Assembly: GCA_964456405.1 (NCBI GenBank)
Contig: CAYVZB010000004.1
Location: forward strand, 1-62,699
Source: an uncultured Candidatus Saccharibacteria bacterium
Lineage (GTDB): Bacteria > Patescibacteriota > Minisyncoccia > Phycocordibacterales > DATGWK01
DNA length: 62,699 nucleotides
Direction: 5' to 3'
Positions within the stretch are counted from its first letter, which is position 1; each line of letters opens with the position of its first letter. Positions 47,281 through 59,664 of the stretch are shown piece after piece. The notes beneath the pieces were generated by a model. It was not told the origin of the DNA. It searched no databases and saw only the letters and a program-made list of their open reading frames with translations. Position numbers and translations under genes: made by a program.

Positions 47281-47356
47281 CGCCACCTTAGCTCAGTTGG
47301 TAGAGCAGCCGTTTTGTAAACGGCAGGTCGTCAGTTCAAGCCTGACAGGTGGCTCC
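47281..47356 (+). tRNA. tRNA-Thr (anticodon UGU), CCA encoded
   Basis: Hand-folded. Acceptor GCCACCT/AGGTGGC, D arm GCTC-AGTTGGTA-GAGC, anticodon arm GCCGT-TTTGTAA-ACGGC, T arm GTCAG-TTCAAGC-CTGAC. Confidence 0.9.
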
Positions 47357-47439
47357 AAAAGTATGGTTTTATGCGCACGTGTGGATTCAGCTATTGTTTA
47401 GCTATTTTAAATGAACGATAATCAAATGGAGCGTGTAGC

Positions 47440-48087
47440 TTGCAGATGATTAGTAATAAATATTCTTTTAAATTTGTCAGGGGGAGTACCTTGGGTAGTT
47501 CAGCTACTTATGTTGTTGGTGAAAAACCATTAGCACTGAATGAAAGTTCTTCTGGAGATATTGGTGAAAAGCAGACTCTCATAACCGATGAAAATAAACG
47601 GGTTTTTCTTAAGGCATTAGGGGTAGCGGGTATCGGACTTGCCGCGTCCCAATTTTTACCCAAAAAGGCAGAAGCTTTGGTAATGGGAAGTACACCATCT
47701 TCAAGTGTGGTTGGAGTAAAAGACGCGAGTAACGACAGAATAAATCCTGCAACAGAAGAAACTGTTGCCTCGCTTCTTGCAGGTCAGGGCGTTTCAAAAA
47801 TTACCACCACACTTGCAGCAACGGGAAATGTCCACACTCCTGGTTCTGGTAAAAAAATCAGGGTTTATGCTTCGCGCTTTTCTTTAACGGCGGACGCGAC
47901 ATCAGTCTCGTTCCGTTTTACGTCCGGTGGCACGGATCACGAAAAATATGTGTCTCCGAAAGCCGGTGGTTTGTATGGTTCGAACAATCATCCAAATTAT
48001 ATCGAAGGTGGTGTGGATGAGGTGTTATACTGTGTAATATCTGGCACTACCACCGTGCAAATTAATATCGATTATTTAGAAGTTTAA
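47440..48087 (+). CDS. Hypothetical exported protein with a twin-arginine-like (KR) signal
   Basis: 215 aa. ENKRVFLKALGVAGIGLAASQFLPKKAEA fits S/T-R-R-x-F-L-K plus h-region plus AxA, except K-R replaces R-R. Beta-rich C-terminal domain. TTG start (ATG at 47446). Confidence 0.6.
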   Translation: MQMISNKYSFKFVRGSTLGSSATYVVGEKPLALNESSSGDIGEKQTLITDENKRVFLKALGVAGIGLAASQFLPKKAEALVMGSTPSSSVVGVKDASNDRINPATEETVASLLAGQGVSKITTTLAATGNVHTPGSGKKIRVYASRFSLTADATSVSFRFTSGGTDHEKYVSPKAGGLYGSNNHPNYIEGGVDEVLYCVISGTTTVQINIDYLEV

Positions 48088-48098
48088 TTTTAGAAGCA

Positions 48099-50759
48099 AT
48101 GGCATTACGAGCAGTTGAACATGTATTTACAGGAGTCACTACACCATACTCAAACTATGATTCGACTAAGACCAGTTTAGGGGATCTAATCGAACAGTAT
48201 ACAGGTGATGATAACACTGATAAGTTTGCTGGACCTTCAAAAATCGGTATTGCGCGACCGTTTGAAACCTCAACTTCAATTCCAGGTATTTTCCCGCACG
48301 TAGTACAGTGGGCGAATAAAGAGGGGCACTATTCAACGGGTACAGTTGCTGTTTCTGGTACTGCTGTGACAGGTAGTGGAACAGGGTGGTTAGCGGCAGG
48401 GGTGCCTATTGGCGCAAGAATTGGTTTTGGTTCAACTGACCCTGCAGAAATTACAACCTGGTACACCATTACTGCTATTGGTTCTGCTACAACACTAACA
48501 CTTGCAACTTCGGCGGGTACGATTTCAGGTGGCACGGCCTTTGTAATAGATAAAGAAGTTAAAAAAGACTGGGTATTTTTGGCCGATAACGCTGCTACTG
48601 CAGCAACTCGTAGAATTTCCTGCTTTGCTTACGATCGTTTAACCTCACTTTTTACATGGAGAGGATTCATTACAATTACCTACCCAGCCGGTGGAGGTAA
48701 TCAAATAATCAGAGGAATGCGAGTTATTTATGATACCTATACTGCTGGGACTATTGAGGTTTCGGGAGCTACGGTAACTGGCACGTCAACACTCTGGTCG
48801 GACTCACGTATTGCAGTTGGTTCCAGAATTGGTTTTGGTAGTACCGATCCGACACAAATTACTACCTGGTATTATATTAACGCTGTCAGTTCAAACACCT
48901 CAATCACACTCCAAACAAACGTTACTGCAAGCGGTACTGGAGGCACCGCCGCTAGTCTTACTATTTCTTCAGGTACAGCGTATGTCATTGAAGATTTGAA
49001 GGTTCTTACTTCTACTACCGCAGTTGTGATTGCGGCGGCGGGTTTGACCTTGGTTAACGGTCTTTCTTATGATGATTTTGCGGTCGGTGGTACAACTATT
49101 GCTGCGGCTACGACAGTTGATAAAACAAAGGCGGCGTACAGTCTTGTCGATCTTGATTCGATCTATTCGACTGGAACCGTAACAGTTCCAACATCAACAA
49201 CTGTTACCGGGTCAGGAACGGCATGGGCCGCTGCTACTCATCTCGGATGTAAAATTGGCTTTGGTTCAACCAACCCTGCTTCTATAACTACATGGTATAC
49301 GATCACTGCTGTTGGTTCGGGTACATCCCTTACCATTTCATCCGCGGCAACGGTGTCAGGGGGTACAAGTTATGTGATTGTCGGCGGAAACGGCATTTCG
49401 TGCGGTTTGGCAGTTGACGATCGTGTCAGTTGGACTGAGCAATATGCATATATAATCGAACTTCAGGGTGGAACCACGCCACAAGTATATAAATATAATT
49501 TCAGAGCTGATCTTACAACGCTTGGTGGTATTGGTGCAGGTAAGGCTGCGGCTGCGTGGGTACTCACAACAGGAACCCAGACCGTTACTGGTACGGTGAC
49601 ACAGACTAATAACGGTCGTGTTGGAATTTTATCCCACGGACCAGGTTCTGGTGTTAAGTGTTTATATTTTGTTTCCGGTAGCCGTGTTCACCGTGCACCG
49701 CTTACTGATATCGTTCAAGGAAGTACAACATGGGTTTCGGACTCCATGAGCGAAATTCCTCCCGGTGGTACTTCTACCTACGGTCTCACGAGTCTTTTGA
49801 CCGGTGTAGAAATTGCCGATCAAATCGACAGGCTTATTCTTACCACTACTGGCGCTGGTACTACCACAGCTCACCATCGTGCTTATTTAACAAAGTACGA
49901 TGCGTCTGGATCCTATGCGTTTGACCATATCTTCCTTGTGGATACTGGTCAACAAGATCAGTCTTCCGCTGATTCTGCCTCGGTGCCGCATCCAAGCGCA
50001 CAGGGCGCCGCTTTGTCTGTGTGGTCACAGGCCGGCCTTGTGTATATTGCACGTACGGGTACGGCCGCGACAACAAACGTAATGTACACAGTACCATTGG
50101 GTGCCGACTGGGAGTATGCTGATGGTTCAGTTAATCAAAGACTCATTACACCAGTACTCTCAACAGAGAATGCCCAAAAACTAATACGTGTGTACGCTAA
50201 TAATGCAGACTATTTAGGTGACGATAGTCTAACTATGCCAACAGAACCATTTAGGATTTATTATCGAACCTCAGGGATTGATGATGATTCGGGTAACTGG
50301 GTGTTGGTTGACCAAACTGGTGATTTAACCGGAGCGACTCCCGCGGAAGAAATTCAATTCGCAATCGAATTCAGAACTATTGGTGCAATTTGTCTCCCTA
50401 ATCGCGTATACAACCTGTCTTGTTTGTATGAGGACAATACTACTGATAGTCATTATCAGCCATCTGTTGCGCAGTCTTCAACAACAGAAAAAAGATTTGC
50501 ATGGAGATTTTCAACTGCATTTGGCGGCACAGTTCCAACACTCAGAATTAGACTGTATAATGCAACAACTGGCGGACTTTTGCTTGATGATACGACCACT
50601 GCATTGGCATCTGGCACGTTTGAGAAATCAACCAACGACGGCGGCTCGTGGGGATCATACAATACATCTGATAAGAGCAATGACACGACATACATTCGTT
50701 ATACGCCAACTTCGCTTGCAGACAACATAAAGGTTCGCGCCCTCCTAACACAAAACTAA
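48099..50759 (+). CDS. 886-aa signal-less protein with three ~70-aa G/T/S-rich repeats
   Basis: Long uninterrupted ORF. Repeats at aa 78-150, 214-296 and 356-427 share GT(V/I)xV..G..VTG(S/T)GT.W....G..IGFGST.P..ITTWY.I.A..S.TS(L/I)T......SGGT.YVI. Confidence 0.75.
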   Translation: MALRAVEHVFTGVTTPYSNYDSTKTSLGDLIEQYTGDDNTDKFAGPSKIGIARPFETSTSIPGIFPHVVQWANKEGHYSTGTVAVSGTAVTGSGTGWLAAGVPIGARIGFGSTDPAEITTWYTITAIGSATTLTLATSAGTISGGTAFVIDKEVKKDWVFLADNAATAATRRISCFAYDRLTSLFTWRGFITITYPAGGGNQIIRGMRVIYDTYTAGTIEVSGATVTGTSTLWSDSRIAVGSRIGFGSTDPTQITTWYYINAVSSNTSITLQTNVTASGTGGTAASLTISSGTAYVIEDLKVLTSTTAVVIAAAGLTLVNGLSYDDFAVGGTTIAAATTVDKTKAAYSLVDLDSIYSTGTVTVPTSTTVTGSGTAWAAATHLGCKIGFGSTNPASITTWYTITAVGSGTSLTISSAATVSGGTSYVIVGGNGISCGLAVDDRVSWTEQYAYIIELQGGTTPQVYKYNFRADLTTLGGIGAGKAAAAWVLTTGTQTVTGTVTQTNNGRVGILSHGPGSGVKCLYFVSGSRVHRAPLTDIVQGSTTWVSDSMSEIPPGGTSTYGLTSLLTGVEIADQIDRLILTTTGAGTTTAHHRAYLTKYDASGSYAFDHIFLVDTGQQDQSSADSASVPHPSAQGAALSVWSQAGLVYIARTGTAATTNVMYTVPLGADWEYADGSVNQRLITPVLSTENAQKLIRVYANNADYLGDDSLTMPTEPFRIYYRTSGIDDDSGNWVLVDQTGDLTGATPAEEIQFAIEFRTIGAICLPNRVYNLSCLYEDNTTDSHYQPSVAQSSTTEKRFAWRFSTAFGGTVPTLRIRLYNATTGGLLLDDTTTALASGTFEKSTNDGGSWGSYNTSDKSNDTTYIRYTPTSLADNIKVRALLTQN

Positions 50760-50760
50760 T

Positions 50761-51495
50761 ATGATTCACATTGAAAAAGGAGAATTTGTAGTAGGGAATC
50801 CGTCGCTCAAAGTGGTGACCAAGACTGGTGACTATGAAGATACAGCCCTAATTGAATTTAAAGATGTGAGCTCTGAGGAGGAACTCGTAGCCGGTGCTTA
50901 TCAAGCACAGTTTATTAAATACGGCAATTTGGTGTACCAATTCAATGATCCTAAGGATTTGGGTGTTGAAATTTTGAAAATCGACCCAGAATCTACTCAC
51001 GCTGCGGCATCTTTTGTTCGGCTCAATGCTGAGCTTTTGAGGCAACTCAATAATGGCTCACTCGAACCGTCGTCTCTAGACCAAGCGGTGGCAGAAGAAA
51101 AGATCAACACAGAGGAACCAGTAGAAGGTCCTGTTGATGTTGTCGAACCGGAGGAAACAGATGAACCGGATGATACTTTTCCACCGATCGATACACCAAC
51201 ACCGACTACACCACATATCGATATTTCAACCACAACCACTCCCTTCATCCCAAATAATTCGAAAAAGAATAGAAAAATTATTGATGTTCAGAAAACTAAT
51301 GTGGTCGATGATTTTGCTACAGATCAGATTTTGCCCGTAGATAAAAAAATTGATAATTCTTCGATTTTAGAGGAAGTGCTTGAAGTCGTGAGTCCGGAAG
51401 TCGGAGATGTTGTTTCTTCTGTCAAAAGGAAAATCGCTAAACTTAAAGGAATTACTCCAAAAAAGTTAGCCAAGAAAAAGCGTCGCAACACTTAG
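50761..51495 (+). CDS. Hypothetical acidic protein with P/T linker and K/R-rich C-terminus
   Basis: 244 aa. ATG is 1 nt after the 886-aa stop (TAATATG). Confidence 0.6.
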   Translation: MIHIEKGEFVVGNPSLKVVTKTGDYEDTALIEFKDVSSEEELVAGAYQAQFIKYGNLVYQFNDPKDLGVEILKIDPESTHAAASFVRLNAELLRQLNNGSLEPSSLDQAVAEEKINTEEPVEGPVDVVEPEETDEPDDTFPPIDTPTPTTPHIDISTTTTPFIPNNSKKNRKIIDVQKTNVVDDFATDQILPVDKKIDNSSILEEVLEVVSPEVGDVVSSVKRKIAKLKGITPKKLAKKKRRNT

Positions 51496-51705: not shown

Positions 51706-52425
51706 GTGGAGACTTTCAAGAATTTCATACAAAAATTTACGCCGTATCTCGAGGATATCAGGCGTCGGCTTTATTTTCTGGCAATTTTCTTCATTGCTAT
51801 GTTTATTGCTGGGTTTTTGGGAACCGGGATCATTATAAAGTTCATTCTTTCCTTGTTTGATATTAAAGATGTGGTTATTGCCACGACTTCACCTTTTCAG
51901 TTTGCTGATCTTTCTGTGAATATTGGTTTGGCTGCGGCCTGTCTCGTCTGTTGTCCACTTTTTGTGTACCATATTTTTTCTTTTTTGAGTCCGGCCCTTA
52001 GCAAAAGGGAAAAGAAATCATTCTTTGTCGTTTTACCTCTCTCGATCATTTTATTTTCAGCTGGATTCGTATATGGTTTTTTCATTTTGTATTACGCACT
52101 TATCACATTGGCGCGTATCAACAACAGTATTGGTGTTCAAAACATATGGGATGTAGGAACCTTTTTGTCCCAAATCATCATTACAGCCACACTTTTGGGT
52201 GTTTTGTTTCAGTTTCCGATTGTTGTGAGCTACCTTATTCGAATGGGACTTTTGGATGTCGCTGTTCTTCGTTCAAAAAGAAAGATCGCGGTGTTTATAA
52301 TATTCATTTTTGCAACTTTACTTCCACCAACCGACGGGCTATCATTAATTGCGATGGTATTGCCGCTTACGTTACTCTACGAGCTTACAATTTTGGCAAA
52401 TTCGAGAGTGCGAAGTTCTGCATAG
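51706..52425 (+). CDS. tatC: Twin-arginine translocase subunit TatC
   Basis: 239 aa, 6 TM helices. FLSPALSKREKK and LLPPTDGLS blocks. GTG start. Confidence 0.85.
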   Translation: METFKNFIQKFTPYLEDIRRRLYFLAIFFIAMFIAGFLGTGIIIKFILSLFDIKDVVIATTSPFQFADLSVNIGLAAACLVCCPLFVYHIFSFLSPALSKREKKSFFVVLPLSIILFSAGFVYGFFILYYALITLARINNSIGVQNIWDVGTFLSQIIITATLLGVLFQFPIVVSYLIRMGLLDVAVLRSKRKIAVFIIFIFATLLPPTDGLSLIAMVLPLTLLYELTILANSRVRSSA

Positions 52426-52464: not shown

Positions 52465-52647
52465 ATGTTTGGAAATATTGGGACAAAAGAAATTATCATC
52501 ATAGCTGTTGTTTTCATCATTCTTTTTGGCGCAAAGAAGATCCCAGAACTTTCAAAGAGTTTGGTTGAATCCATCCGACATCTCCGAGGTGCCTTTAAGG
52601 ATCTTCCTCCTGAAACAACTGGTAAGGAAGAAAAGAAACGATCTTAG
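52465..52647 (+). CDS. tatA: Twin-arginine translocase subunit TatA/E
   Basis: 60 aa. IIIIAVVFIILFGAKKIPELSKSL, amphipathic helix. Confidence 0.8.
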   Translation: MFGNIGTKEIIIIAVVFIILFGAKKIPELSKSLVESIRHLRGAFKDLPPETTGKEEKKRS

Positions 52648-52689: not shown

Positions 52690-54669
52690 ATGTTAGATCG
52701 TAGAAATTCTATTCTCAATAGGTTTTTAAAATCATTCTTTTTTATCTGGATATTTGTTTTGATTTTGGGCGTTTTTTCAGTTGCTCGAGCAGCATATGAG
52801 CGTTTTGAAGCCGGTGGCACCGCAACCATCGGTGAATTTGTGTACGACGATGATTTTGTTGCAACTACAACCGCTGGTTGTGTTGTGACAATTTATAATC
52901 CTGCTGGATCCGCCGTTGTTACTAACGCTTCTATGTCTGTGAATGTGACAAACGGTTGGTATTATTATAATTATTCTATTCCTACGTCTGGTGCAACCGG
53001 TGTTTGGCCAACCACAATGCGGTGCGGTAGTGCGGCGGTTGGTGATTTGGTTCAGTTGGACAAGAGTTTCGCCGTCGGAGATATTGTTGTTTCTTCCTCA
53101 ACCATTGCAACCTCTGTCTGGCAGAATGCAACGCGTTCACTTACCTCATTCGGTACACTTGTCTCTGATGTCTGGGCAAACGGTACCAGAACGCTCACTG
53201 GAGCTGGGTTAACCTCAGGCTCTTTGGCAACGCAGGCAGACATTTTGACCGCCTCATCATCTCTTGCAGCAACCATTCCAACAGCTGTCTGGAGCTCTGG
53301 AACTCGATCACTTACAACATTTGGCACACTGGTTTCAGACGTTTGGGCTAACGGTACACGAACACTTACCTCTGGTGGCAGTATCACTGCTGCCGATGTT
53401 TGGTCATATGCAACCCGAAGGCTCTCTGACTCAACACTCGATACTGGTTCACTTGCAACAGCAGCAAATCTAACAACCGCATCTTCTTCAATTGCAGCGG
53501 TGGTCAATGCTAATACCGATTCACAAGTTTCCTCAATTAACGCAAATACAAACTCTGTTGTTGGAACAGCGTCCTCATCACTTGCTTCTGTAATCAATGC
53601 CAACACAAACTCTCAGATTTCTTCAGCAATTTCAACGATAAACAGCAACGTTGCTTCAACGGTGCTTACAGCTTCGACATCGCTCGTCGCTACAATTCCA
53701 ACCGCGGTCTGGGCTAACACAACACGTTCACTCACCACATTTGGTAGCCTTGTTGCGGATATCTGGTCAGCCGCTACTCAAACACCATGGGATATGACCA
53801 CATCAGACTTCGGTACGGTAGCTGCGGGTAGTAATTATCTCGCAACAGTTCGAACGACATACAACGGCACACTTACTGACTCAAACAACACTCCGACAGT
53901 CACATTGTATGACCCAAGTAGAAACGTAATTGTGAGTGGTGTAGCAATGACTCGAATTTCAACAGGAACATATTCCTACTCATACACAACAACGAGCGGT
54001 TCACCTGCAGGTACATGGGAAGCGGTTTTCTCGGCAGGAGTTGATACTGGAAAGACACTTTCAGGCAGTGACTACTGGACCGTGGTTTCATCTCCTGCCC
54101 AGGTCATTATCAACAGTATTTCTGATACAGTAGCTCCAGAAATTTCTGCCAATGTCACAATCACGAACGAAGGTTTGACTGGATACGAGTATCAGTATGA
54201 ATGGTGTGTCGTTTCAAGCATCGACAATGCTTGTGGAGGGGGTAACGACACGTTCCATGGTATTGCGGCGAAATTTATCAATGCCGGTGAAGATTTCAAT
54301 ACAACACTGACCGCAACTGTGCCTAATGACGGCAATTATTTCTTCAAGTTGGTCGTGTACTTCGGTGACGACAGTTCTGGTGCTTCACGATCATTCGCTG
54401 TGACTGGCGGTACTGGTGGCGGCAGTCCACCTTCGGGTGGTGGTGGCGGAGGAGGGGGTGGTGGGGGAAGTTCAGGTGGTTCTCAGACGACAAATTCAGC
54501 GGTTGCAGATTTGAACGGGGATAACATCGTAAATTCTGTTGATTTCTCCATTCTTCTTTACTTCTGGAAAGCACAACCACCATTTTCTAACCCACAGGTT
54601 GATATGAATAAGGATGGTAAAATAGATTCTGTTGATTTCTCCATTCTTCTGTATCGATGGGGCCAATAG
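52690..54669 (+). CDS. Secreted repeat protein with poly-Gly linker and C-terminal dockerin module
   Basis: 659 aa. Signal peptide. Seven W-x5-R-x-LT repeats. G-run. Duplicated calcium-loop segments DLNGDNIVNSVDFSILL and DMNKDGKIDSVDFSILL. Confidence 0.75.
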   Translation: MLDRRNSILNRFLKSFFFIWIFVLILGVFSVARAAYERFEAGGTATIGEFVYDDDFVATTTAGCVVTIYNPAGSAVVTNASMSVNVTNGWYYYNYSIPTSGATGVWPTTMRCGSAAVGDLVQLDKSFAVGDIVVSSSTIATSVWQNATRSLTSFGTLVSDVWANGTRTLTGAGLTSGSLATQADILTASSSLAATIPTAVWSSGTRSLTTFGTLVSDVWANGTRTLTSGGSITAADVWSYATRRLSDSTLDTGSLATAANLTTASSSIAAVVNANTDSQVSSINANTNSVVGTASSSLASVINANTNSQISSAISTINSNVASTVLTASTSLVATIPTAVWANTTRSLTTFGSLVADIWSAATQTPWDMTTSDFGTVAAGSNYLATVRTTYNGTLTDSNNTPTVTLYDPSRNVIVSGVAMTRISTGTYSYSYTTTSGSPAGTWEAVFSAGVDTGKTLSGSDYWTVVSSPAQVIINSISDTVAPEISANVTITNEGLTGYEYQYEWCVVSSIDNACGGGNDTFHGIAAKFINAGEDFNTTLTATVPNDGNYFFKLVVYFGDDSSGASRSFAVTGGTGGGSPPSGGGGGGGGGGGSSGGSQTTNSAVADLNGDNIVNSVDFSILLYFWKAQPPFSNPQVDMNKDGKIDSVDFSILLYRWGQ

Positions 54670-54687
54670 TAACTTAATTAAATTAAC

Positions 54688-55596
54688 ATGCACAAGATAT
54701 TCAAATTTTTAGTAATAGCGATGATCGCTTTTGTTCTTCCACAGATGGTCTCGGCAGCGTCCGTATATGTTGAAGCGTCTCGAAGTACTATTTCAGTCGG
54801 CGACACTGCTGTGGTCGCGGTTAAGATCAATGCTGATGGCGGGGTAATCAACACGATTGAAGGAGATATAGCAATAAATTCAGTGGCGAATAACGCTGTT
54901 GTTCAGGAATTTAGTCTTGCTAATTCTGCTTTTGGATTGTGGCCACGAACTCCATCACTTTCTACCGATGGGAAAACGGTTTCTTTTGTCGGGGGAGTGC
55001 CAGGCGGTTTCAGTATTGAGGGTGCCACTGTTTTTAAAATAATTCTTGAAGCAAAAAAACCTGGTCGCGTAACTATTTCTCCTAAAAATATTTCTGTATA
55101 CCAAAACGATGGTCAGGGTACAAAATTACCAATACAATTTAAGGATGTGGCAATTGATGTCGTTGCCGCGCAATCTGGTGTAGAGGCCGTAAATGACTGG
55201 GCGGCAATTGTTTCTCAGGATGTAACAAAACCAGAAGACTTTATTATCGTTCCTGGACAGACAAATAATCTTTTTGAAGGCAAAAAATTTGTATTCTTTA
55301 GCGCAGTGGACAACCAGTCCGGCATTGACTATTACGAAGTTTCTGAAAATGGTGGCACTGCGGTACGAAGCGGTAGCACCTATGTCTTACAAAACCAGAA
55401 TGGCAATGTCGATCTCACAGTTACTGCGTATGACAAGGCAGGTAACCGACGTGTGGTAAAAAGCGCGGTTGAGCCAAAAGAAGGAATTTCATGGACGTTT
55501 GTTATTACGGTAATTCTGGCTGGAGTGGTGCTTAAGATTGTGTATAAAATTTGGAAGCGTAGAAAAAGTAATGCATCATTTTCTGGTCAAAATTAA
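54688..55596 (+). CDS. Cohesin-like domain protein, C-terminally membrane-anchored
   Basis: 302 aa. Signal peptide. SVYVEAS..ISVGDTAVVAVKINADGGVINTIEGDIAI...FKIILEAKKPGRVTIS. C-terminal TM helix plus KRRK. Confidence 0.65.
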   Translation: MHKIFKFLVIAMIAFVLPQMVSAASVYVEASRSTISVGDTAVVAVKINADGGVINTIEGDIAINSVANNAVVQEFSLANSAFGLWPRTPSLSTDGKTVSFVGGVPGGFSIEGATVFKIILEAKKPGRVTISPKNISVYQNDGQGTKLPIQFKDVAIDVVAAQSGVEAVNDWAAIVSQDVTKPEDFIIVPGQTNNLFEGKKFVFFSAVDNQSGIDYYEVSENGGTAVRSGSTYVLQNQNGNVDLTVTAYDKAGNRRVVKSAVEPKEGISWTFVITVILAGVVLKIVYKIWKRRKSNASFSGQN

Positions 55597-57289
55597 ATCT
55601 ACTTTCACCGTTGTTCTTGTTCTTCTGACTCTTTGCCTAGGTTTTGGATTTGCTTCGACTGCAGAAGCAGCCAGTCTTTATCTTTCGCCGTCGTCTCCAA
55701 GCTCTTCAGTGGGAAATATCACAACTCTTAAGGTTCTTGTTGATACCCAAGGAAAAGCAATTAACAACTCAGATGGAATCATCCAATTTCCAACAGATTC
55801 ATTAGAGGTTTTATCTATTAGCAAGAATCAATCGATTTTTACGATTTGGGTAGAGGAACCAAGGTTTTCCAATACTGATGGAACAATTACTTACAACGGA
55901 GGCGTTCCAAACCCCGGCTATACTGGAGCTGCTGGTGAAATCCTCACAGTAACCTTTAAGGCAAAGAAGCAGGGCCCAGCGTCAGTCATTTTTTCTGATT
56001 CAACTGTGCGCGAAAATGACGGCTACGGAACCGATATCCTTGTAGGAAAGCTTCCTGCTGTTATTAATGTTGGACAGGCGGTAGTGGATGCGCCTGCCCC
56101 CGCTACGGTTTCTAGTTTGCCACCAAAGCCAGTGGTAAAGTCACTTACCCATCCAGAACAGGATGGATGGTACTCGGAAACAACGGGTACTTTTAGTTGG
56201 GTTGTACCGGCAGGAGTGACATCTCTCCAGACGCTCTTAAGCAAGAATCCAACAGCGGTGCCTGCTATCACGTACGACCGATCAGTTTCTCAGCGAACCG
56301 TTAACAACTTGTCAGATGGAATTTTATACTTCCATGTTCGTTATTTGAACAATGTTGGCTGGGGACCGACAGCGCATTACAAAATTCAGATTGATACAAC
56401 CCCACCCGAGCTTTCTTCACTTCGCGTAGAGGGTGTTGATGGACGTGATGTGGTTACACTTACTGCAAAAGATTCTTTGTCTGGCGTCGAACGCTATGAA
56501 CTCACTGTCGATGACCAAGCTTCAATCGAATTTAAGTCATCAGAAGAAAACCCTCAGTTTGTACTACCTGTTCAAAATCCAAGCACTCATCGTTTAGGTG
56601 TTGTGGCTTTTGATAAGGCTGGTAATAAGGCCGAGATAACGACTTCATTTGATAGTCCACCAATTAAAGAACCAACGATTGATGTTGCTGAGAAGGAAAT
56701 TAGTAATGGAAGGAAGATCACTGTAACTGGTCAGACAGACTATCCAAATTCTGGTGTTGAGGTTTTGGTTCAGATTGGCGATCAACAACTTGGTTTGTTC
56801 CAGGGTGTGACGGCAGAGGACGGCACGTTTACTGTAATTTCTGATGAAATCAGAGAAAGTGGAACCGTCAAGGTTACTGCACAGCTCGTGTTCTCAGAAT
56901 TTGTTAAGAGCCCGTATTCTCAGCCGGTCTTTGTGCAGGTTTCTGATTTCTACGTCATAAAGGTCAGCAAAGAGGTGGTTCGGGTGCTGACATATGTCAT
57001 TCCGGCTGTCTTTATGCTGTTTGCTCTCCTTATACTCGTTTATCTTGGATGGCATAGGTTCTTTAGCCTTAAAAAGCGTTTAAGAAGAGATCTCGATGAA
57101 ACAGCGGCTGGAGTTCATAAGGCTGTTGCAATGTACAAGAGTGAATTGGCGCGACAGCTTGAGAAACTCGAACGAGCACGTGTTGACGATGGCCTCAATA
57201 AAGAAGAAGAAAAGATCTTCAAAGAACTCAAGAACAGTATCGATGACATCGATTTGTTTATCGAGAAAAAACTAAAGAAATTTAAATAG
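55571..57289 (+). CDS. Cohesin-like domain protein with Ig-like modules, TM helix and cytoplasmic coiled-coil tail
   Basis: Start MHHFLVKIKSTFTVVLVLL inside track ORF 55538..57289. SLYLSPSS..VGNITTLKVLVDTQGKAINNSDGIIQFP..LTVTFKAKKQGPASVIF. Confidence 0.65.
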   Translation: MHHFLVKIKSTFTVVLVLLTLCLGFGFASTAEAASLYLSPSSPSSSVGNITTLKVLVDTQGKAINNSDGIIQFPTDSLEVLSISKNQSIFTIWVEEPRFSNTDGTITYNGGVPNPGYTGAAGEILTVTFKAKKQGPASVIFSDSTVRENDGYGTDILVGKLPAVINVGQAVVDAPAPATVSSLPPKPVVKSLTHPEQDGWYSETTGTFSWVVPAGVTSLQTLLSKNPTAVPAITYDRSVSQRTVNNLSDGILYFHVRYLNNVGWGPTAHYKIQIDTTPPELSSLRVEGVDGRDVVTLTAKDSLSGVERYELTVDDQASIEFKSSEENPQFVLPVQNPSTHRLGVVAFDKAGNKAEITTSFDSPPIKEPTIDVAEKEISNGRKITVTGQTDYPNSGVEVLVQIGDQQLGLFQGVTAEDGTFTVISDEIRESGTVKVTAQLVFSEFVKSPYSQPVFVQVSDFYVIKVSKEVVRVLTYVIPAVFMLFALLILVYLGWHRFFSLKKRLRRDLDETAAGVHKAVAMYKSELARQLEKLERARVDDGLNKEEEKIFKELKNSIDDIDLFIEKKLKKFK

Positions 57290-57291
57290 TC

Positions 57292-58041
57292 TTACCGACT
57301 TGGATTGGGAGTAGAAGCTTCTTGGGTCGCATCTTCAATTTTTACAAGGTCATTTCCAATGAGCTCAGCGTACAGGTTTGTTTTTTCGCCAGTTTCTGAA
57401 CTTAATTCAATGATTACGTTTTGATTTTCTATTCTGATTTTTTCGGGTTTGTTTTTGTCTCCTAGAAAGATTAGGTTTGTACCCTCGTGACCATCGGTTG
57501 AACTTATCGCGCTTGTTAGGTAATAAAGCATGCCACGCTCTGCGTCTTTACGACTGATGATGAATGCAACGTCATCTTTACCATCTTGAGAAAGATCACC
57601 GTAGGCTTCCATGCCAAAGAATTTTTCAGGTTTGCGTTCCCGTGATTTCATCACAAGGGCTGGTAGATCGTGATTTTCAACACTTGAAACAAGGCGTTTG
57701 CTACGAATAACATGCTCACCAGTAATAATTATGGTAATTATTACCAAAGCAATAACAATATATTTTGTAGATGTAACAAACTTGATTGCGATTCCGATCA
57801 GGGTTCCATAAAGGGTAAAAACTACAAGGAAAAATGCGAATGTAATGCTAAGCGTTATTGTGTTTGAAATATTTTGACCATATGTAGACAAAATGTGTTC
57901 AAGTACTGGTCGTAATGACACAAATTCAAGAATTCTTCCGATTGTTGCTCCACTACCGATGAGATATGTAATGTATGCAGATAGCGCTGAACCCAGAAGG
58001 AGGCCTAAAACGCCCGTTTCAAGAATATTTGGTTTACTCAT
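57292..58041 (-). CDS. Hypothetical membrane protein with FG-GAP-like loop
   Basis: 249 aa, 4 TM helices, GDLSQDGKDDVAF. Confidence 0.5.
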   Translation of the reverse strand: MSKPNILETGVLGLLLGSALSAYITYLIGSGATIGRILEFVSLRPVLEHILSTYGQNISNTITLSITFAFFLVVFTLYGTLIGIAIKFVTSTKYIVIALVIITIIITGEHVIRSKRLVSSVENHDLPALVMKSRERKPEKFFGMEAYGDLSQDGKDDVAFIISRKDAERGMLYYLTSAISSTDGHEGTNLIFLGDKNKPEKIRIENQNVIIELSSETGEKTNLYAELIGNDLVKIEDATQEASTPNPSR

Positions 58042-58107: not shown

Positions 58108-59664
58108 ATGACCAAACATCAGAATAATCGAGATGATGGATCACGGACACCAATTCATATTGGACGTGCCTCCGAGCTCAGGGGAACTGATAGGGTGCTA
58201 TACCGTGCCCTTGAGATTCTACCTGGTGTTTTGGCGTGGGGATCAATTTTTCTTTGTATTTTCTTGTCTTATTTTGCGCCTGTCGCAGCGGCTGTTTTAA
58301 TCATCATTTTCGACTTTTACTGGCTTCTAAAGACAGTGTATCTTTCGACCTACCTTCGCCAAAACTGGCGTCGGATGAGGCATAACCTACACGTCGACTG
58401 GGTCGCAATGTTGAACAATGTGAAATCTGAACACGTGTACCACATGATCCTTTTACCTTTTTACAAGGAAGATATCGGTGTGATCGAAAAGGGTTTGGAA
58501 TCGATACAAAATTCTCGGTATGACAAAAAGAAGTTTTTGATTGTTCTTGCGACCGAAGAAAGAGCTGGTGCGGAATCAATGGCAAAAGCTCAGGCGGCAC
58601 AGAGTAAGTTTGCCCATATTTTTGGTGATTTCATTATCACCACACATCCAAAGGACGTGCCTGGTGAGATGGCGGGTAAGGGTTCAAATATTTCATATGC
58701 AATCGAAGAGGCGCGAACAAAAATTCTCGATTTTAGAGGGATTCCATACGAAGATGTTATTGTTTCGGCTTTTGATATTGATACAGTCGTGTACCCAGAC
58801 TATTTTGCTGCTGTAACCTGGCATTTCTTAACATCAGAGCATCCGTATCGCACGTCTTTCCAGCCCGTGCCTTTGTATAACAACAACATGTGGGACGCAC
58901 CAGCGCTTTCTCGTGTAGTGGCAACCTCTGGAACGTTTTGGCAGATGATTCAGCAAGAACGACCCGAAAAGATCGCGACATTTTCGTCTCATTCTGTTCC
59001 GTTCAAGACTCTATATGACATTGGATATTGGCAGAGGAACATGGTGTCTGAAGATTCCCGAATCTTTTGGAATGCCTTTTTTGCCTATGATGGTCATTAC
59101 AGTGTAACGCCGCTTTCGTATCCAATTTCGCTTGACGCAAACTTGGCGCCGACGTTTTGGCAGACGCTTATTAATATCTACAAACAGCAACAACGTTGGG
59201 GCTGGGGAGTCGAAAATGTGCCATATATTCTCTTTGGCTTAATAAAAAATAAAAAGATTTCGTTCTGGAAGAAGATCCGCGTGGCATTTACACAACTCGA
59301 AGGTTTTTGGTCTCTTTCAACCAATCCAATTATTATTTTTGCATTATCATGGTTGCCACTCATTATCGGTGGTCCGGCTTTTAACACAACCGTTCTTTCA
59401 TACAATTTACCGAGTGTGACGCGTAACCTTATGATCTTGGCAATGTGTGGGCTTGTTTTCTCGGCCATTGTTTCAATGTCCTTTTTACCAAAGAGACCCA
59501 AAACTCATAATCCACTTAAATTTGTGGTCATGATTTTGCAGTGGATTTTGATCCCCATTACTGTTACGGTTTTTGGAGCCATTCCGGGTCTGCACGCACA
59601 AACGCGACTCATGCTTGGGCAGTATATGGGCTTTTGGGTCACGCCAAAACATCGTGCTGACTAA
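58108..59664 (+). CDS. Integral-membrane family 2 glycosyltransferase (processive synthase-like, QxxRW)
   Basis: 518 aa. FDIDTVVYPDYF (D,D motifs), YKQQQRWGWG, N- and C-terminal TM bundles. Confidence 0.75.
   Translation: MTKHQNNRDDGSRTPIHIGRASELRGTDRVLYRALEILPGVLAWGSIFLCIFLSYFAPVAAAVLIIIFDFYWLLKTVYLSTYLRQNWRRMRHNLHVDWVAMLNNVKSEHVYHMILLPFYKEDIGVIEKGLESIQNSRYDKKKFLIVLATEERAGAESMAKAQAAQSKFAHIFGDFIITTHPKDVPGEMAGKGSNISYAIEEARTKILDFRGIPYEDVIVSAFDIDTVVYPDYFAAVTWHFLTSEHPYRTSFQPVPLYNNNMWDAPALSRVVATSGTFWQMIQQERPEKIATFSSHSVPFKTLYDIGYWQRNMVSEDSRIFWNAFFAYDGHYSVTPLSYPISLDANLAPTFWQTLINIYKQQQRWGWGVENVPYILFGLIKNKKISFWKKIRVAFTQLEGFWSLSTNPIIIFALSWLPLIIGGPAFNTTVLSYNLPSVTRNLMILAMCGLVFSAIVSMSFLPKRPKTHNPLKFVVMILQWILIPITVTVFGAIPGLHAQTRLMLGQYMGFWVTPKHRAD

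Follow-up and report, generated by a model that had tools for sequence, protein, structure and literature searches.

Three adjacent genes on the + strand of the window, i.e., the whole 62.7-kb stretch of DNA analysed here, quite probably make up a non-cellulosomal module for cohesin-dockerin surface display that is conserved in Paceibacteria-type CPR bacteria, to which the uncultured, ultra-small source bacterium belongs. The first gene (designated g1) encodes a secreted protein with a C-terminal dockerin, while the second and third (g2 and g3) each encode a membrane-anchored protein with an N-terminal cohesin domain, and about 60 related species have kept the trio. The domain identities and the near-inseparability of the genes in 66 loci are in agreement with the original prediction, in which a dockerin protein followed by two membrane cohesin proteins was regarded as a surface-display unit. 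The module has not previously been described, and its distinguishing feature as a variant of known cohesin-dockerin systems is anchoring by a transmembrane (TM) helix. The features of the region are as follows:

51706-52425, + strand: tatC, directly upstream of the trio (context)
52465-52647, + strand: tatA, directly upstream of the trio (context)
52690-54669, + strand: g1, secreted dockerin-bearing cargo protein, 659 aa (ORF; Dockerin_1 above the Pfam cut-off)
52690-52791, + strand: Sec-type signal peptide of g1, aa 1-34, predicted cleavage after A-R-A (hydrophobic segment)
52792-53094, + strand: conserved N-terminal 'tip' domain of g1, GEFVYDDDF...C...C motif (motif conservation)
53119-53736, + strand: repeat region of g1, six W-x4-R-x-L-T/S motifs, aa 144-349 (regex count)
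53821-54402, + strand: conserved C-terminal beta-rich region of g1, MG2-like Ig domain and C-x8-C domain (Pfam, alignment)
54403-54483, + strand: Gly-rich flexible linker of g1, aa 572-598, 11-Gly run (translation)
54493-54666, + strand: dockerin module of g1, two Ca-loop plus helix segments, aa 607-628 and 638-659 (Pfam PF00404)
54688-55596, + strand: g2, short membrane-anchored cohesin protein, 302 aa (ORF)
54757-55182, + strand: cohesin-fold module of g2, aa 24-165 (BLASTP to g3, Foldseek)
55240-55473, + strand: Ig/FnIII-like stalk domain of g2, aa ~185-262 (NCBIfam, beta-strands of the model)
55486-55593, + strand: C-terminal TM helix of g2 (aa 267-290) and short basic tail WKRRKSNASFSGQN (hydropathy, model)
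55571-57289, + strand: g3, long membrane-anchored cohesin protein, 572 aa (ORF; database entry P0121)
55670-56080, + strand: cohesin-fold module of g3, aa 34-170 (PF00963, family profile, model)
56093-56965, + strand: stalk of Ig-like domains of g3, aa ~175-465 (sub-threshold domain matches)
56984-57052, + strand: TM helix of g3, aa 472-494 in the 572-aa numbering (hydropathy 2.75)
57056-57286, + strand: cytoplasmic charged helical tail of g3, 77 aa (sequence)
57292-58041, - strand: p249, multi-TM protein convergent with g3 (context; synteny)

The g1 protein is exported by Sec: hydropathy reveals a single N-terminal hydrophobic signal segment (aa 13-31), with A-R-A at residues 32-34, and K-rich, Sec-like signals are typical of its relatives. 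In the g1 body, Ig-like domains are combined with a stalk of W-x4-R-x-L-T repeats that can expand; the Gly linker and the dockerin follow. The N-terminal tip motif is present in 80 of 119 relatives, while each relative carries between 1 and 14 copies of the W-x4-R-x-L-T/S motif, copy number being correlated with protein length (r=0.70). Pfam MG2 matches aa 400-450 with 30.4 bits, just under its cut-off of 32.8, and matches the g1 homolog of locus L001 with 38.1 bits; sequence relatives in the PDB were found neither for the tip domain nor for the C-terminal beta-rich region. The linker harbors a tandem repeat, (GGT)9.7, at positions 54436-54464 (TRF).

The three ORFs were found on the + strand where they had been predicted, and the signal segment and a Dockerin_1 match substantiate the proposal that the 659-aa g1 is secreted and carries a poly-Gly linker and a duplicated calcium-binding dockerin at its C-terminus. 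The suggested Pfam search placed Dockerin_1 (PF00404) on aa 606-653 at 32.6 bits (E=9.1e-8), above the gathering cut-off of 22.9, with g1 orthologs scoring 36.7-39.1 bits; the family as a whole numbers 463 relatives, 379-1118 aa in length, with PF00404 present in almost all. Furthermore, g1 matches the solved dockerins 2y3n_B, 2yik_A and 1daq_A (phmmer against the PDB). The duplicated segment (DLNGDNIVNSVDFSILLYFWKA / DMNKDGKIDSVDFSILLYRWGQ) is identical at 13 of 22 residues, its copies lying 31 residues apart, and the two halves, DLNGDNIVNSVD-FSILLYFW and DMNKDGKIDSVD-FSILLYRW, each consist of an EF-hand-like Ca-binding loop followed by a helix. Judged by sequence, this is a canonical two-segment Ca-binding type I dockerin with near-symmetric halves.

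The cohesin identity of g2 and g3 emerges at the level of families and folds. Pfam Cohesin returned no match at E<=1 to either full-length protein, a phmmer search of the PDB did not detect a cohesin likeness of their N-domains, and a profile of the g2 family by itself found no cohesin in the PDB by sequence; g2-type domains matched only BatD in Pfam, and weakly. Against PF00963, whose cut-off is 24.1 bits, the isolated N-domain of g3 reached 18.6 (E=0.0022). The g2 module is 30% identical to the g3 N-domain (BLASTP, E=8e-10), and the two families are also linked by cross-family phmmer. The Cohesin search that had been proposed as a check gave a split outcome, in that g2 and g3 fall under the PF00963 cut-off while 33 of the 52 members of their N-domain family match it at E<=0.01 (best 5.2e-12); it is also precomputed in about 20 g3 relatives, and the three best PDB matches of the N-domain family profile are cohesins (E=3.8e-4 to 3.5e-3). 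The predicted g2 and g3 models superpose on solved cohesins, as is characteristic of the nine-stranded beta-sandwich (jelly-roll) of this fold, and nearly all of their best 50 PDB fold matches are cohesins, among the matches being the 'cohesin-like' modules 2jh2 and 2vo8 of C. perfringens. For the g3 N-domain (AlphaFold pLDDT 97) all 50 of the best 50 Foldseek matches are cohesins (TMq 0.63-0.82), the OlpC cohesin (4dh2) being the best by query-normalised TM-score (TMq 0.82). For full-length g2 (pLDDT 84) the top match is 2w1n (cohesin plus FnIII, E=5e-12), which spans both domains and is followed by dozens of cohesins (TMt 0.6-0.79). By family profile and predicted fold the N-domains are real cohesins, as had been suggested from their sequence pattern, and are termed divergent because neither attains the Pfam Cohesin cut-off.

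The topology of g2 and of g3 is that of a type-I membrane protein, with the N-terminus outside and a single TM helix at the C-terminus. The signal peptides and TM helices that had been predicted for them are seen by hydropathy: g2 possesses an N-terminal signal segment and a single C-terminal TM helix at aa 267-290 (helix 269-294 in the AlphaFold model), followed by a basic tail of 12 aa, and g3 likewise combines an N-terminal signal segment with one C-terminal TM helix. The TM helix is found in 120 of 120 g2 relatives and in 98 of 101 g3 relatives; the g2 relatives number 344, all from Patescibacteria. The cytoplasmic tail attributed to g3 is present as a 77-aa charged C-terminal segment, conserved in length among relatives (median 74 aa, IQR 72-78); it is not TatA-like and no family match to it was found. 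The start assigned to g3 is to be revised: its longest ORF begins at TTG 55538, while ATG 55571 gives 572 aa, the length of database entry P0121, which is 100% identical to g3, and ATG 55571 is probably the true start.

The outline of both anchors can be extended by a stalk of Ig/FnIII-like domains, one in g2 and several in g3, which separates the TM helix from the cohesin and bears the latter at its distal end. An OmpL47-type NCBIfam domain matches the g2 stalk at 32.9 bits, under its cut-off of 40, while the g3 stalk exhibits sub-threshold matches to Big_13, DUF7743, Big_3_2 and an OmpL47-type domain (Pfam, NCBIfam), and PF19077 is precomputed in most g3 relatives. An SLH- or sortase-anchored scaffoldin was considered and rejected, the C-termini being a TM helix and a basic tail; Pfam and NCBIfam searches of g2 and g3 matched no SLH or Gram_pos_anchor domain, and LPXTG is absent from the sequence.

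The association of the three genes was assessed in 66 species-level Patescibacteria loci (896,683 bp), where 61 of 61 dockerin ORFs lie directly beside a cohesin gene. Automated criteria were satisfied by 60 of the 63 upstream-informative loci, the exceptions being one degenerate, one contig-cut and one reordered locus. Of 64 loci, 58 have two or more cohesin-TM genes in the same orientation; a single one occurs in four (L041, L042, L052 and L055) and three to five in a few, and the cohesin:dockerin stoichiometry is therefore not fixed. Each related locus has one dockerin gene, as does the window, which contains two cohesins. The genes are tightly packed, with a gap of 18 bp between g1 and g2 and an overlap of 26 bp between g2 and g3. 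Conservation of the dockerin pattern D.N.D...N/D..DFSI...W reaches at least 90% among 49 paired loci, as does that of both dockerin helices and several cohesin loops across clades, a pattern which a maintained protein-protein interface would predict. The length of the cargo body ranges between 291 and 1434 aa with the dockerin kept throughout, and in distant loci the g1-type body is swapped for a different one (polyG plus Big_6/Big_13) while the dockerin is retained. Viral relatives of the trio were not found, and PHROG and PADLOC searches of it returned no match.

It could be argued that the trio represents co-expressed envelope neighbors rather than partners, the dockerin binding another cohesin encoded elsewhere in the genome, a host-cell component or a glycan, and the g2 and g3 domains binding other ligands or serving as structural beta-sandwiches. 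The divergence of g2 and g3 would accord with this, as would the existence of cohesin-like folds without a known dockerin partner, e.g., 2jh2 and 2vo8, and the case of an essential dockerin protein of a Saccharibacterium whose partner is unnamed and for which glycan targeting was speculated by its authors (PMC10633639). Nevertheless, we regard this reading as unlikely in view of the invariable placement of dockerin ORFs beside a cohesin gene over 0.9 Mb, the dockerin being the sole cargo part conserved once the rest is replaced, and the conservation of dockerin helices and cohesin loops across clades. The near-inseparability of g1, g2 and g3 across the 66 loci argues strongly, if indirectly, for a functional partnership.

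A cellulosome is defined by carbohydrate-active enzymes that carry dockerins and assemble on a scaffoldin with several cohesins, in most cases together with a CBM, and the trio does not conform to this definition. Its cohesin and dockerin modules are nearest to cellulosomal ones in fold and sequence, which would be expected of a miniature cellulosome displaying carbohydrate-degrading enzymes; such a role is nonetheless highly improbable, since each locus has one dockerin gene, each anchor bears one cohesin, and no glycoside hydrolase, CE, PL, CBM or other catalytic domain was found in g1, its orthologs or 20 distant-clade dockerin proteins, the last of which contain Ig-like domains only. Because a catalytic domain is missing in every clade, the cargo of the proposed display module would be structural or adhesive, evolving through repeat expansion, and g1 as a surface fibril, coat or adhesin fits these data. 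No homolog of known function was found that would point to one of these roles.

Synteny of tatC and tatA with the trio extends to about 17 closer loci, and the original prediction joined the two genes to the trio and to p215, p886 and p244 as one integrated Tat-linked locus (47.4-57.3 kb). The adjacency of tatCA stands, for the closer clade, while the signals of the trio proved to be Sec-type and the Tat motif to reside on p215. A single Tat-dependent host-attachment machine built from all eight products would be consistent with the gene order p215-p886-p244-tatC-tatA-g1-g2-g3, repeated in L001/L005, L004, L007, L011 and L036 and partially in L014, L018, L020 and L023, with the tail-fibre-like repeats of p886, with the fusion of TatC to a g1-like dockerin protein in called protein P0244, and with the conserved Tat-type signal [KR]R-x-F-L-K of p215, which is likely a Tat substrate. 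Such substrates carry a conserved S/T-R-R-x-F-L-K ahead of a mildly hydrophobic h-region. The twin arginine of g1 (aa 4-5), in contrast, is kept in just 5 of 104 relatives, RR is absent from g2 and g3, and the h-regions of all three are strongly hydrophobic (hydropathy 2.1-2.35); g1, g2 and g3 were on these grounds rejected as Tat substrates, and their Sec-type signals are predicted not to require Tat. Moreover, tatC/tatA and p215/p886/p244 adjoin the trio only in the closer clade, being missing there in all distant loci (L048-L069); several closer loci also have the trio without tatC/tatA or p215/p886, the p215/p886 genes lie on the opposite strand in L034 and L047, and the cargo exhibits Ig-like domains and repeats only, with no sign of host interaction. 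The integrated machine is accordingly quite improbable. Pfam and NCBIfam searches gave no match for p249; about 25 closer loci have a homolog of it beside g3, encoded on one strand or the other.

The trio probably pins the variable g1 to the cell surface. The g1 dockerin would plug in a Ca2+-dependent manner into the cohesin of g2 and/or g3, and may, its two halves being near-symmetric (both helices DFSILLY-x-W), bind either cohesin in either orientation. The variable g1 would thereby be held non-covalently at the surface with its conserved N-terminal tip outward, a TM helix serving as anchor instead of the SLH or sortase of cellulosomal scaffoldins, while the length-conserved cytoplasmic tail of g3 (74-77 aa) hints at a possible link to something intracellular. 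A role in host attachment is conjectural. A bolder elaboration, to which we attach little probability, would place the trio at the centre of an attachment organelle found throughout the Paceibacteria lineage: the g1 dockerin would join the g2 and g3 cohesins simultaneously, one per face, this heterotrimeric anchor would present a fast-evolving, repeat-expanding adhesin, and the g3 tail would link the binding of a ligand or host at the surface with the cell interior, with the Tat-exported p215, the tail-fibre-like mosaic p886 and p244 completing a joint host-recognition locus in the closer clade.

Comparable systems are found in other lineages. Archaeoglobus fulgidus, a non-cellulolytic organism, possesses isolated, non-cellulosomal cohesin and dockerin modules, and both the g3 N-domain and g2 match its cohesin (2xdh) well in fold (Foldseek, TMt 0.75-0.76); it differs in domain context and lineage, and we know of no conserved operon of this kind described for it. 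SEML1_0315 of Southlakia epibionticum is an essential dockerin-domain envelope protein implicated in host interaction (Wang et al. 2023; PMC10633639) and, by its description, resembles g1 as a dockerin-bearing cell-envelope protein of CPR/Patescibacteria, although it comes from a different class, Saccharibacteria, and the paper describes neither a cohesin partner nor an operon (PMC10633639). The toxin/glycosidase complexes of Clostridium perfringens (GH84C, 2w1n; 2jh2, 2vo8) are likewise non-cellulosomal, and in GH84C, as in g2, the cohesin is directly followed by an FnIII/Ig-like domain; the C. perfringens cohesins, however, lie inside secreted enzymes and join these to one another, whereas those of the trio are on dedicated membrane anchors encoded beside a presumed single partner. 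In Clostridium/Acetivibrio thermocellum, the cellulosomal anchoring scaffoldins OlpA, OlpC, SdbA and OlpB/ScaB-F tether dockerin-bearing partners by one or few surface cohesins. According to a 2025 review, cellulosome scaffoldins are anchored by SLH modules or sortase (PMC12484212). The trio is distinguished from the thermocellum scaffoldins by its C-terminal TM anchor, non-catalytic cargo, single dockerin gene per locus, occurrence in a CPR bacterium without a cellulosome, cohesins too divergent for the Pfam cut-off, and the conserved cytoplasmic tail of g3. The g1 dockerin, with its duplicated Ca-loop/helix and near-symmetric halves, resembles the dual-binding dockerins (PMC12484212), and, as in the thermocellum system, a surface cohesin of the trio would capture a dockerin-tagged secreted protein.

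The original prediction of a dockerin-bearing gene followed by two membrane-anchored cohesin genes is, as an observation, confirmed overall: an ORF scan of the window identified three same-strand ORFs spanning 52690-57289, which are arranged as follows.

52690-54669, + strand: g1, an ORF of 659 aa encoding the secreted dockerin-bearing protein
54688-55596, + strand: g2, an ORF of 302 aa encoding the first putative membrane-anchored cohesin protein
55538-57289, + strand: g3, the longest ORF for the second such protein, with the ATG at 55571 as its probable start, giving 572 aa

The ATG at 55571 is the probable start of g3 because a 100% identical database copy, P0121, is 572 aa long. The genes are closely spaced, with 42 bp between tatA and g1, a gap of 18 bp between g1 and g2 and an overlap of 26 bp between g2 and g3, while in-frame read-through from g1 into g2 is interrupted by three stop codons. 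The base composition of the region is not distinctive, and promoter and terminator scans gave no more matches than shuffled sequence did. Each of the three proteins carries the label 'hypothetical' in the source databases, and their relatives derive from Patescibacteria/CPR metagenome bins, mostly named as Paceibacterota, Parcubacteria, Taylor-, Nomura-, Campbell-, Yonath- or Lloydbacteria. The MAG record titles for loci L041, L042, L044 and L045, and for many CAZ*/CAY* records, read 'uncultured Gammaproteobacteria' or 'Candidatus Saccharibacteria' though the locus is Patescibacteria-specific, and probably reflect mis-binning or loose labelling.

The g1 protein starts with a single hydrophobic segment followed by A-R-A, after which come a conserved N-terminal domain marked by the motif GEFVYDDDF, a Thr/Ser/Ala-rich region containing six copies of W-x4-R-x-L-T/S, an MG2-like Ig domain (Pfam, 30.4 bits in the window copy and 38.1 in an ortholog), a second conserved beta-rich domain and a Gly-rich linker that includes a stretch of 11 Gly. 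The poly-Gly linker and duplicated dockerin proposed from the sequence were borne out, as the C-terminus matches Dockerin_1 with 32.6 bits (Pfam cut-off 22.9) and also aligns to solved dockerins. Its two halves are near-symmetric (13 of 22 residues identical), each following the pattern D-x-N-x-D...D-F-S-I-L-L-Y-x-W, the positions of which are at least 90% conserved among 49 orthologs. Profile searches found no PDB relatives of the g1 tip domain or of the C-terminal domain. No catalytic or carbohydrate-binding domain was found in g1, its orthologs or the cargos (i.e., the g1 counterparts) of the distant clade, and the trio is therefore not a cellulosome; judged by composition and architecture, g1 may instead be a surface fibril, coat or adhesin.

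Members of the g1 family range from 379 to 1118 aa, and those with more W-x4-R-x-L-T repeats tend to be longer (r=0.70). A reading of these repeats as N-glycosylation sequons (W-x-N-x-T-R) was dropped for lack of enrichment, since 13 sequons were observed where 10.9 were expected (p about 0.27) and only some 31% of the repeats have Asn at the sequon position. The contig ends inside the g1 homolog in 18 of 61 loci, as against 3-4 in g2 or g3, a comparison to be read with the ascertainment caveat that the loci were found through g2 (g1 is broken in L006, L008-L010, L012, L015, L016, L019, L022, L027, L028, L033, L035, L042-L044, L046 and L060). This excess suggests that assembly was broken by repeats or by strain/population microdiversity.

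The assignment of g2 and g3 as cohesins fared unevenly, since the Pfam/HMM check initially proposed was negative while family-level and structural comparisons were positive. Single-sequence searches of Pfam and the PDB gave no cohesin call for either protein, and a profile built from g2 alone matched no PDB cohesin. The N-terminal domains of g2 and g3 are homologous to one another (30% identity, E=8e-10, with cross-family phmmer matches), and in an alignment of 52 such domains 33 individually matched the cohesin family PF00963 (best 5.2e-12), the g3 domain of the window scoring 18.6 bits (E=0.0022). Furthermore, the best PDB matches of the profile derived from this alignment are cohesins. For the g3 N-domain, the AlphaFold2 model (pLDDT 97) returned cohesin modules as all of its best 50 Foldseek matches (TMq 0.63-0.82), and the full-length g2 model (pLDDT 84) had as its top match 2w1n, the cohesin and FnIII double module of C. 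perfringens GH84C (E=5e-12), followed by dozens of cohesins. On the strength of the family profile and the predicted folds, g2 and g3 are taken as divergent cohesins on TM-helix anchors.

These anchors consist of one C-terminal TM helix, followed by a 12-aa basic tail in g2 and a 77-aa charged tail in g3. With this single helix at the C-terminus, retained by 120 of 120 relatives of g2 and 98 of 101 of g3, the proteins are oriented N-out and carry the cohesin at the distal end of an Ig-like stalk. The length of the g3 tail is tightly conserved among relatives (median 74 aa). An interpretation of this tail as a TatA-like element, an idea taken from the JGI name of P0136, was rejected, as neither BLAST similarity nor a PF02416 match was found.

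The partnership of these proteins was assessed in 66 loci (896,683 bp) from species-representative genomes using HMMs built from the family. All 61 dockerin ORFs in these loci directly adjoin a cohesin gene, and by automated criteria the dockerin lies immediately upstream of g2 in 60 of the 63 upstream-informative loci, the three exceptions being degenerate (L045), cut by a contig end (L050) or reordered (L062). At least two same-strand cohesin-TM genes occur in 58 of 64 loci, with one in four loci and three to five in a few, while the 62.7-kb window holds exactly one dockerin and two cohesins. The trio is also present in two other genomes, and g1-position proteins of 291, 1057 and 1434 aa all end in Dockerin_1. 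In the distant loci, whose g2 is 25-33% identical, the g1 body is non-homologous and the dockerin is kept, the cargo starting with a variable N-terminus and continuing through a poly-Gly stretch and Big_6/Big_13 Ig domains to the dockerin. A dockerin that stays beside cohesin genes while the rest of its protein is exchanged would be expected if a cohesin-dockerin interface is being maintained. On this comparative evidence, it is rather probable that the g1 dockerin is held at the membrane by the g2 and/or g3 cohesin, and the core interpretation of the trio as a display unit is indirectly but strongly supported by the 61/61 adjacency and the dockerin retention.

Cohesin expansion is seen in some distant relatives: L053, L062 and L067 carry three cohesin-TM genes each, and one dockerin gene precedes five tandem cohesin-TM genes in L065 (3018-10290). 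Downstream of the trio, p249 (57292-58041, - strand) encodes a multi-TM protein without family match that adjoins the g3 homolog, on either strand, in about 25 closer loci and could be an accessory part of this system. A multi-TM GT2-family glycosyltransferase further downstream (58108-59664; Glyco_trans_2_3, 25.8 bits, weak similarity to PgaC/IcaA) is not kept beside the trio in related loci. An origin of the trio from phage or defence systems was dropped, since no PHROG or PADLOC matches and no relatives in viral contigs (IMG/VR) were found.

The original prediction also placed the trio in a single Tat-linked host-attachment locus, an extension which is weakly supported. In its favour, p215, p886, p244, tatC and tatA stand ahead of the trio in a constant order in the closer clade (p215/p886 being inverted relative to the trio in two loci), whereas all distant loci carry the trio without these five genes. 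The signals of the g1 relatives, moreover, are of the ordinary Sec type (RR in only 5 of 104), and no RR was found in g2 or g3; Tat export of the trio was rejected, given this lack of RR conservation and the strong hydrophobicity of the h-regions. A Tat-type signal ([KR]R-x-F-L-K, a mild h-region and A-x-A, behind a 40-75-aa N-terminal extension) is found in p215 (47440-48087) and in 11 of 11 family members seen, with KR rather than RR in most, and p215 is the likely substrate of the adjacent tatC/tatA. Neither p886 nor p244 has a signal peptide, and their export with p215 as hitch-hikers is speculation. Since the trio has Sec-type signals and the conserved Tat-type motif is that of p215, the trio is best regarded as an autonomous module that neighbours a Tat module in one clade; a single integrated machine of the two is possible but unsupported.

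Several features of the upstream block were also recorded. A tRNA-Thr(tgt) gene (47282-47357) immediately precedes the p215-p886-p244-tatCA-trio block, where GC content is unremarkable. Three internal repeats of p886 (p886 and p244 together span 48099-51495) match PHROG 1591, 'tail fiber protein' (E=3.6e-15). Both proteins are only 41-42% identical to those of the closest relative, L004, though flanking genes are 84-100% identical, and 77-78% identical to those of the more distant L005, a mosaic pattern suggestive of alleles or cassettes being exchanged in a putative surface or recognition protein. In the 897-aa database protein P0244, TatC (123 bits) is joined to a g1-like body and dockerin, which could be a real fusion or gene-calling read-through; in L003, L024 and L026, no tatA intervenes and tatC either adjoins or overlaps the g1 homolog.

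CPR bacteria, Paceibacteria among them, are abundant and have almost all escaped cultivation, and little is known of their cell-surface biology or of how they make contact with hosts or substrates. The trio, kept across dozens of species as one operon with a single hypervariable cargo, offers a testable way into CPR surface architecture and, if binding occurs as predicted, would represent a cohesin-dockerin pair employed outside polysaccharide degradation. Such a compact natural membrane-anchored pair could serve surface-display engineering, and if the cargo proves to be a host-recognition adhesin, its variation in repeats and length would mark host specificity at the level of strains.

In full-text searches of the literature on dockerin or cohesin with CPR, Patescibacteria or Parcubacteria, no account of such a system came up, the nearest mention being an essential dockerin protein of a cultured Saccharibacterium, whose partner is not named (PMC10633639). 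Among the closest known systems are the cellulosomal single-cohesin anchoring scaffoldins (the OlpC cohesin, 4dh2, aligns to the g3 N-domain with TMq 0.82) and, outside cellulosomes, the cohesin-dockerin pairs of C. perfringens and A. fulgidus (2w1n, 2jh2, 2xdh). The anchoring mechanisms given in a 2025 review are SLH or sortase (PMC12484212), whereas the trio, unlike cellulosomal scaffoldins, has a TM-helix anchor, such that a TM helix with two different anchors represents an anchoring mode not listed before. The trio further differs from known cohesin-dockerin systems in that two different anchors are encoded beside one cargo, in that this cargo is non-enzymatic and variable, in the conserved cytoplasmic tail of g3, and in its occurrence in CPR bacteria.
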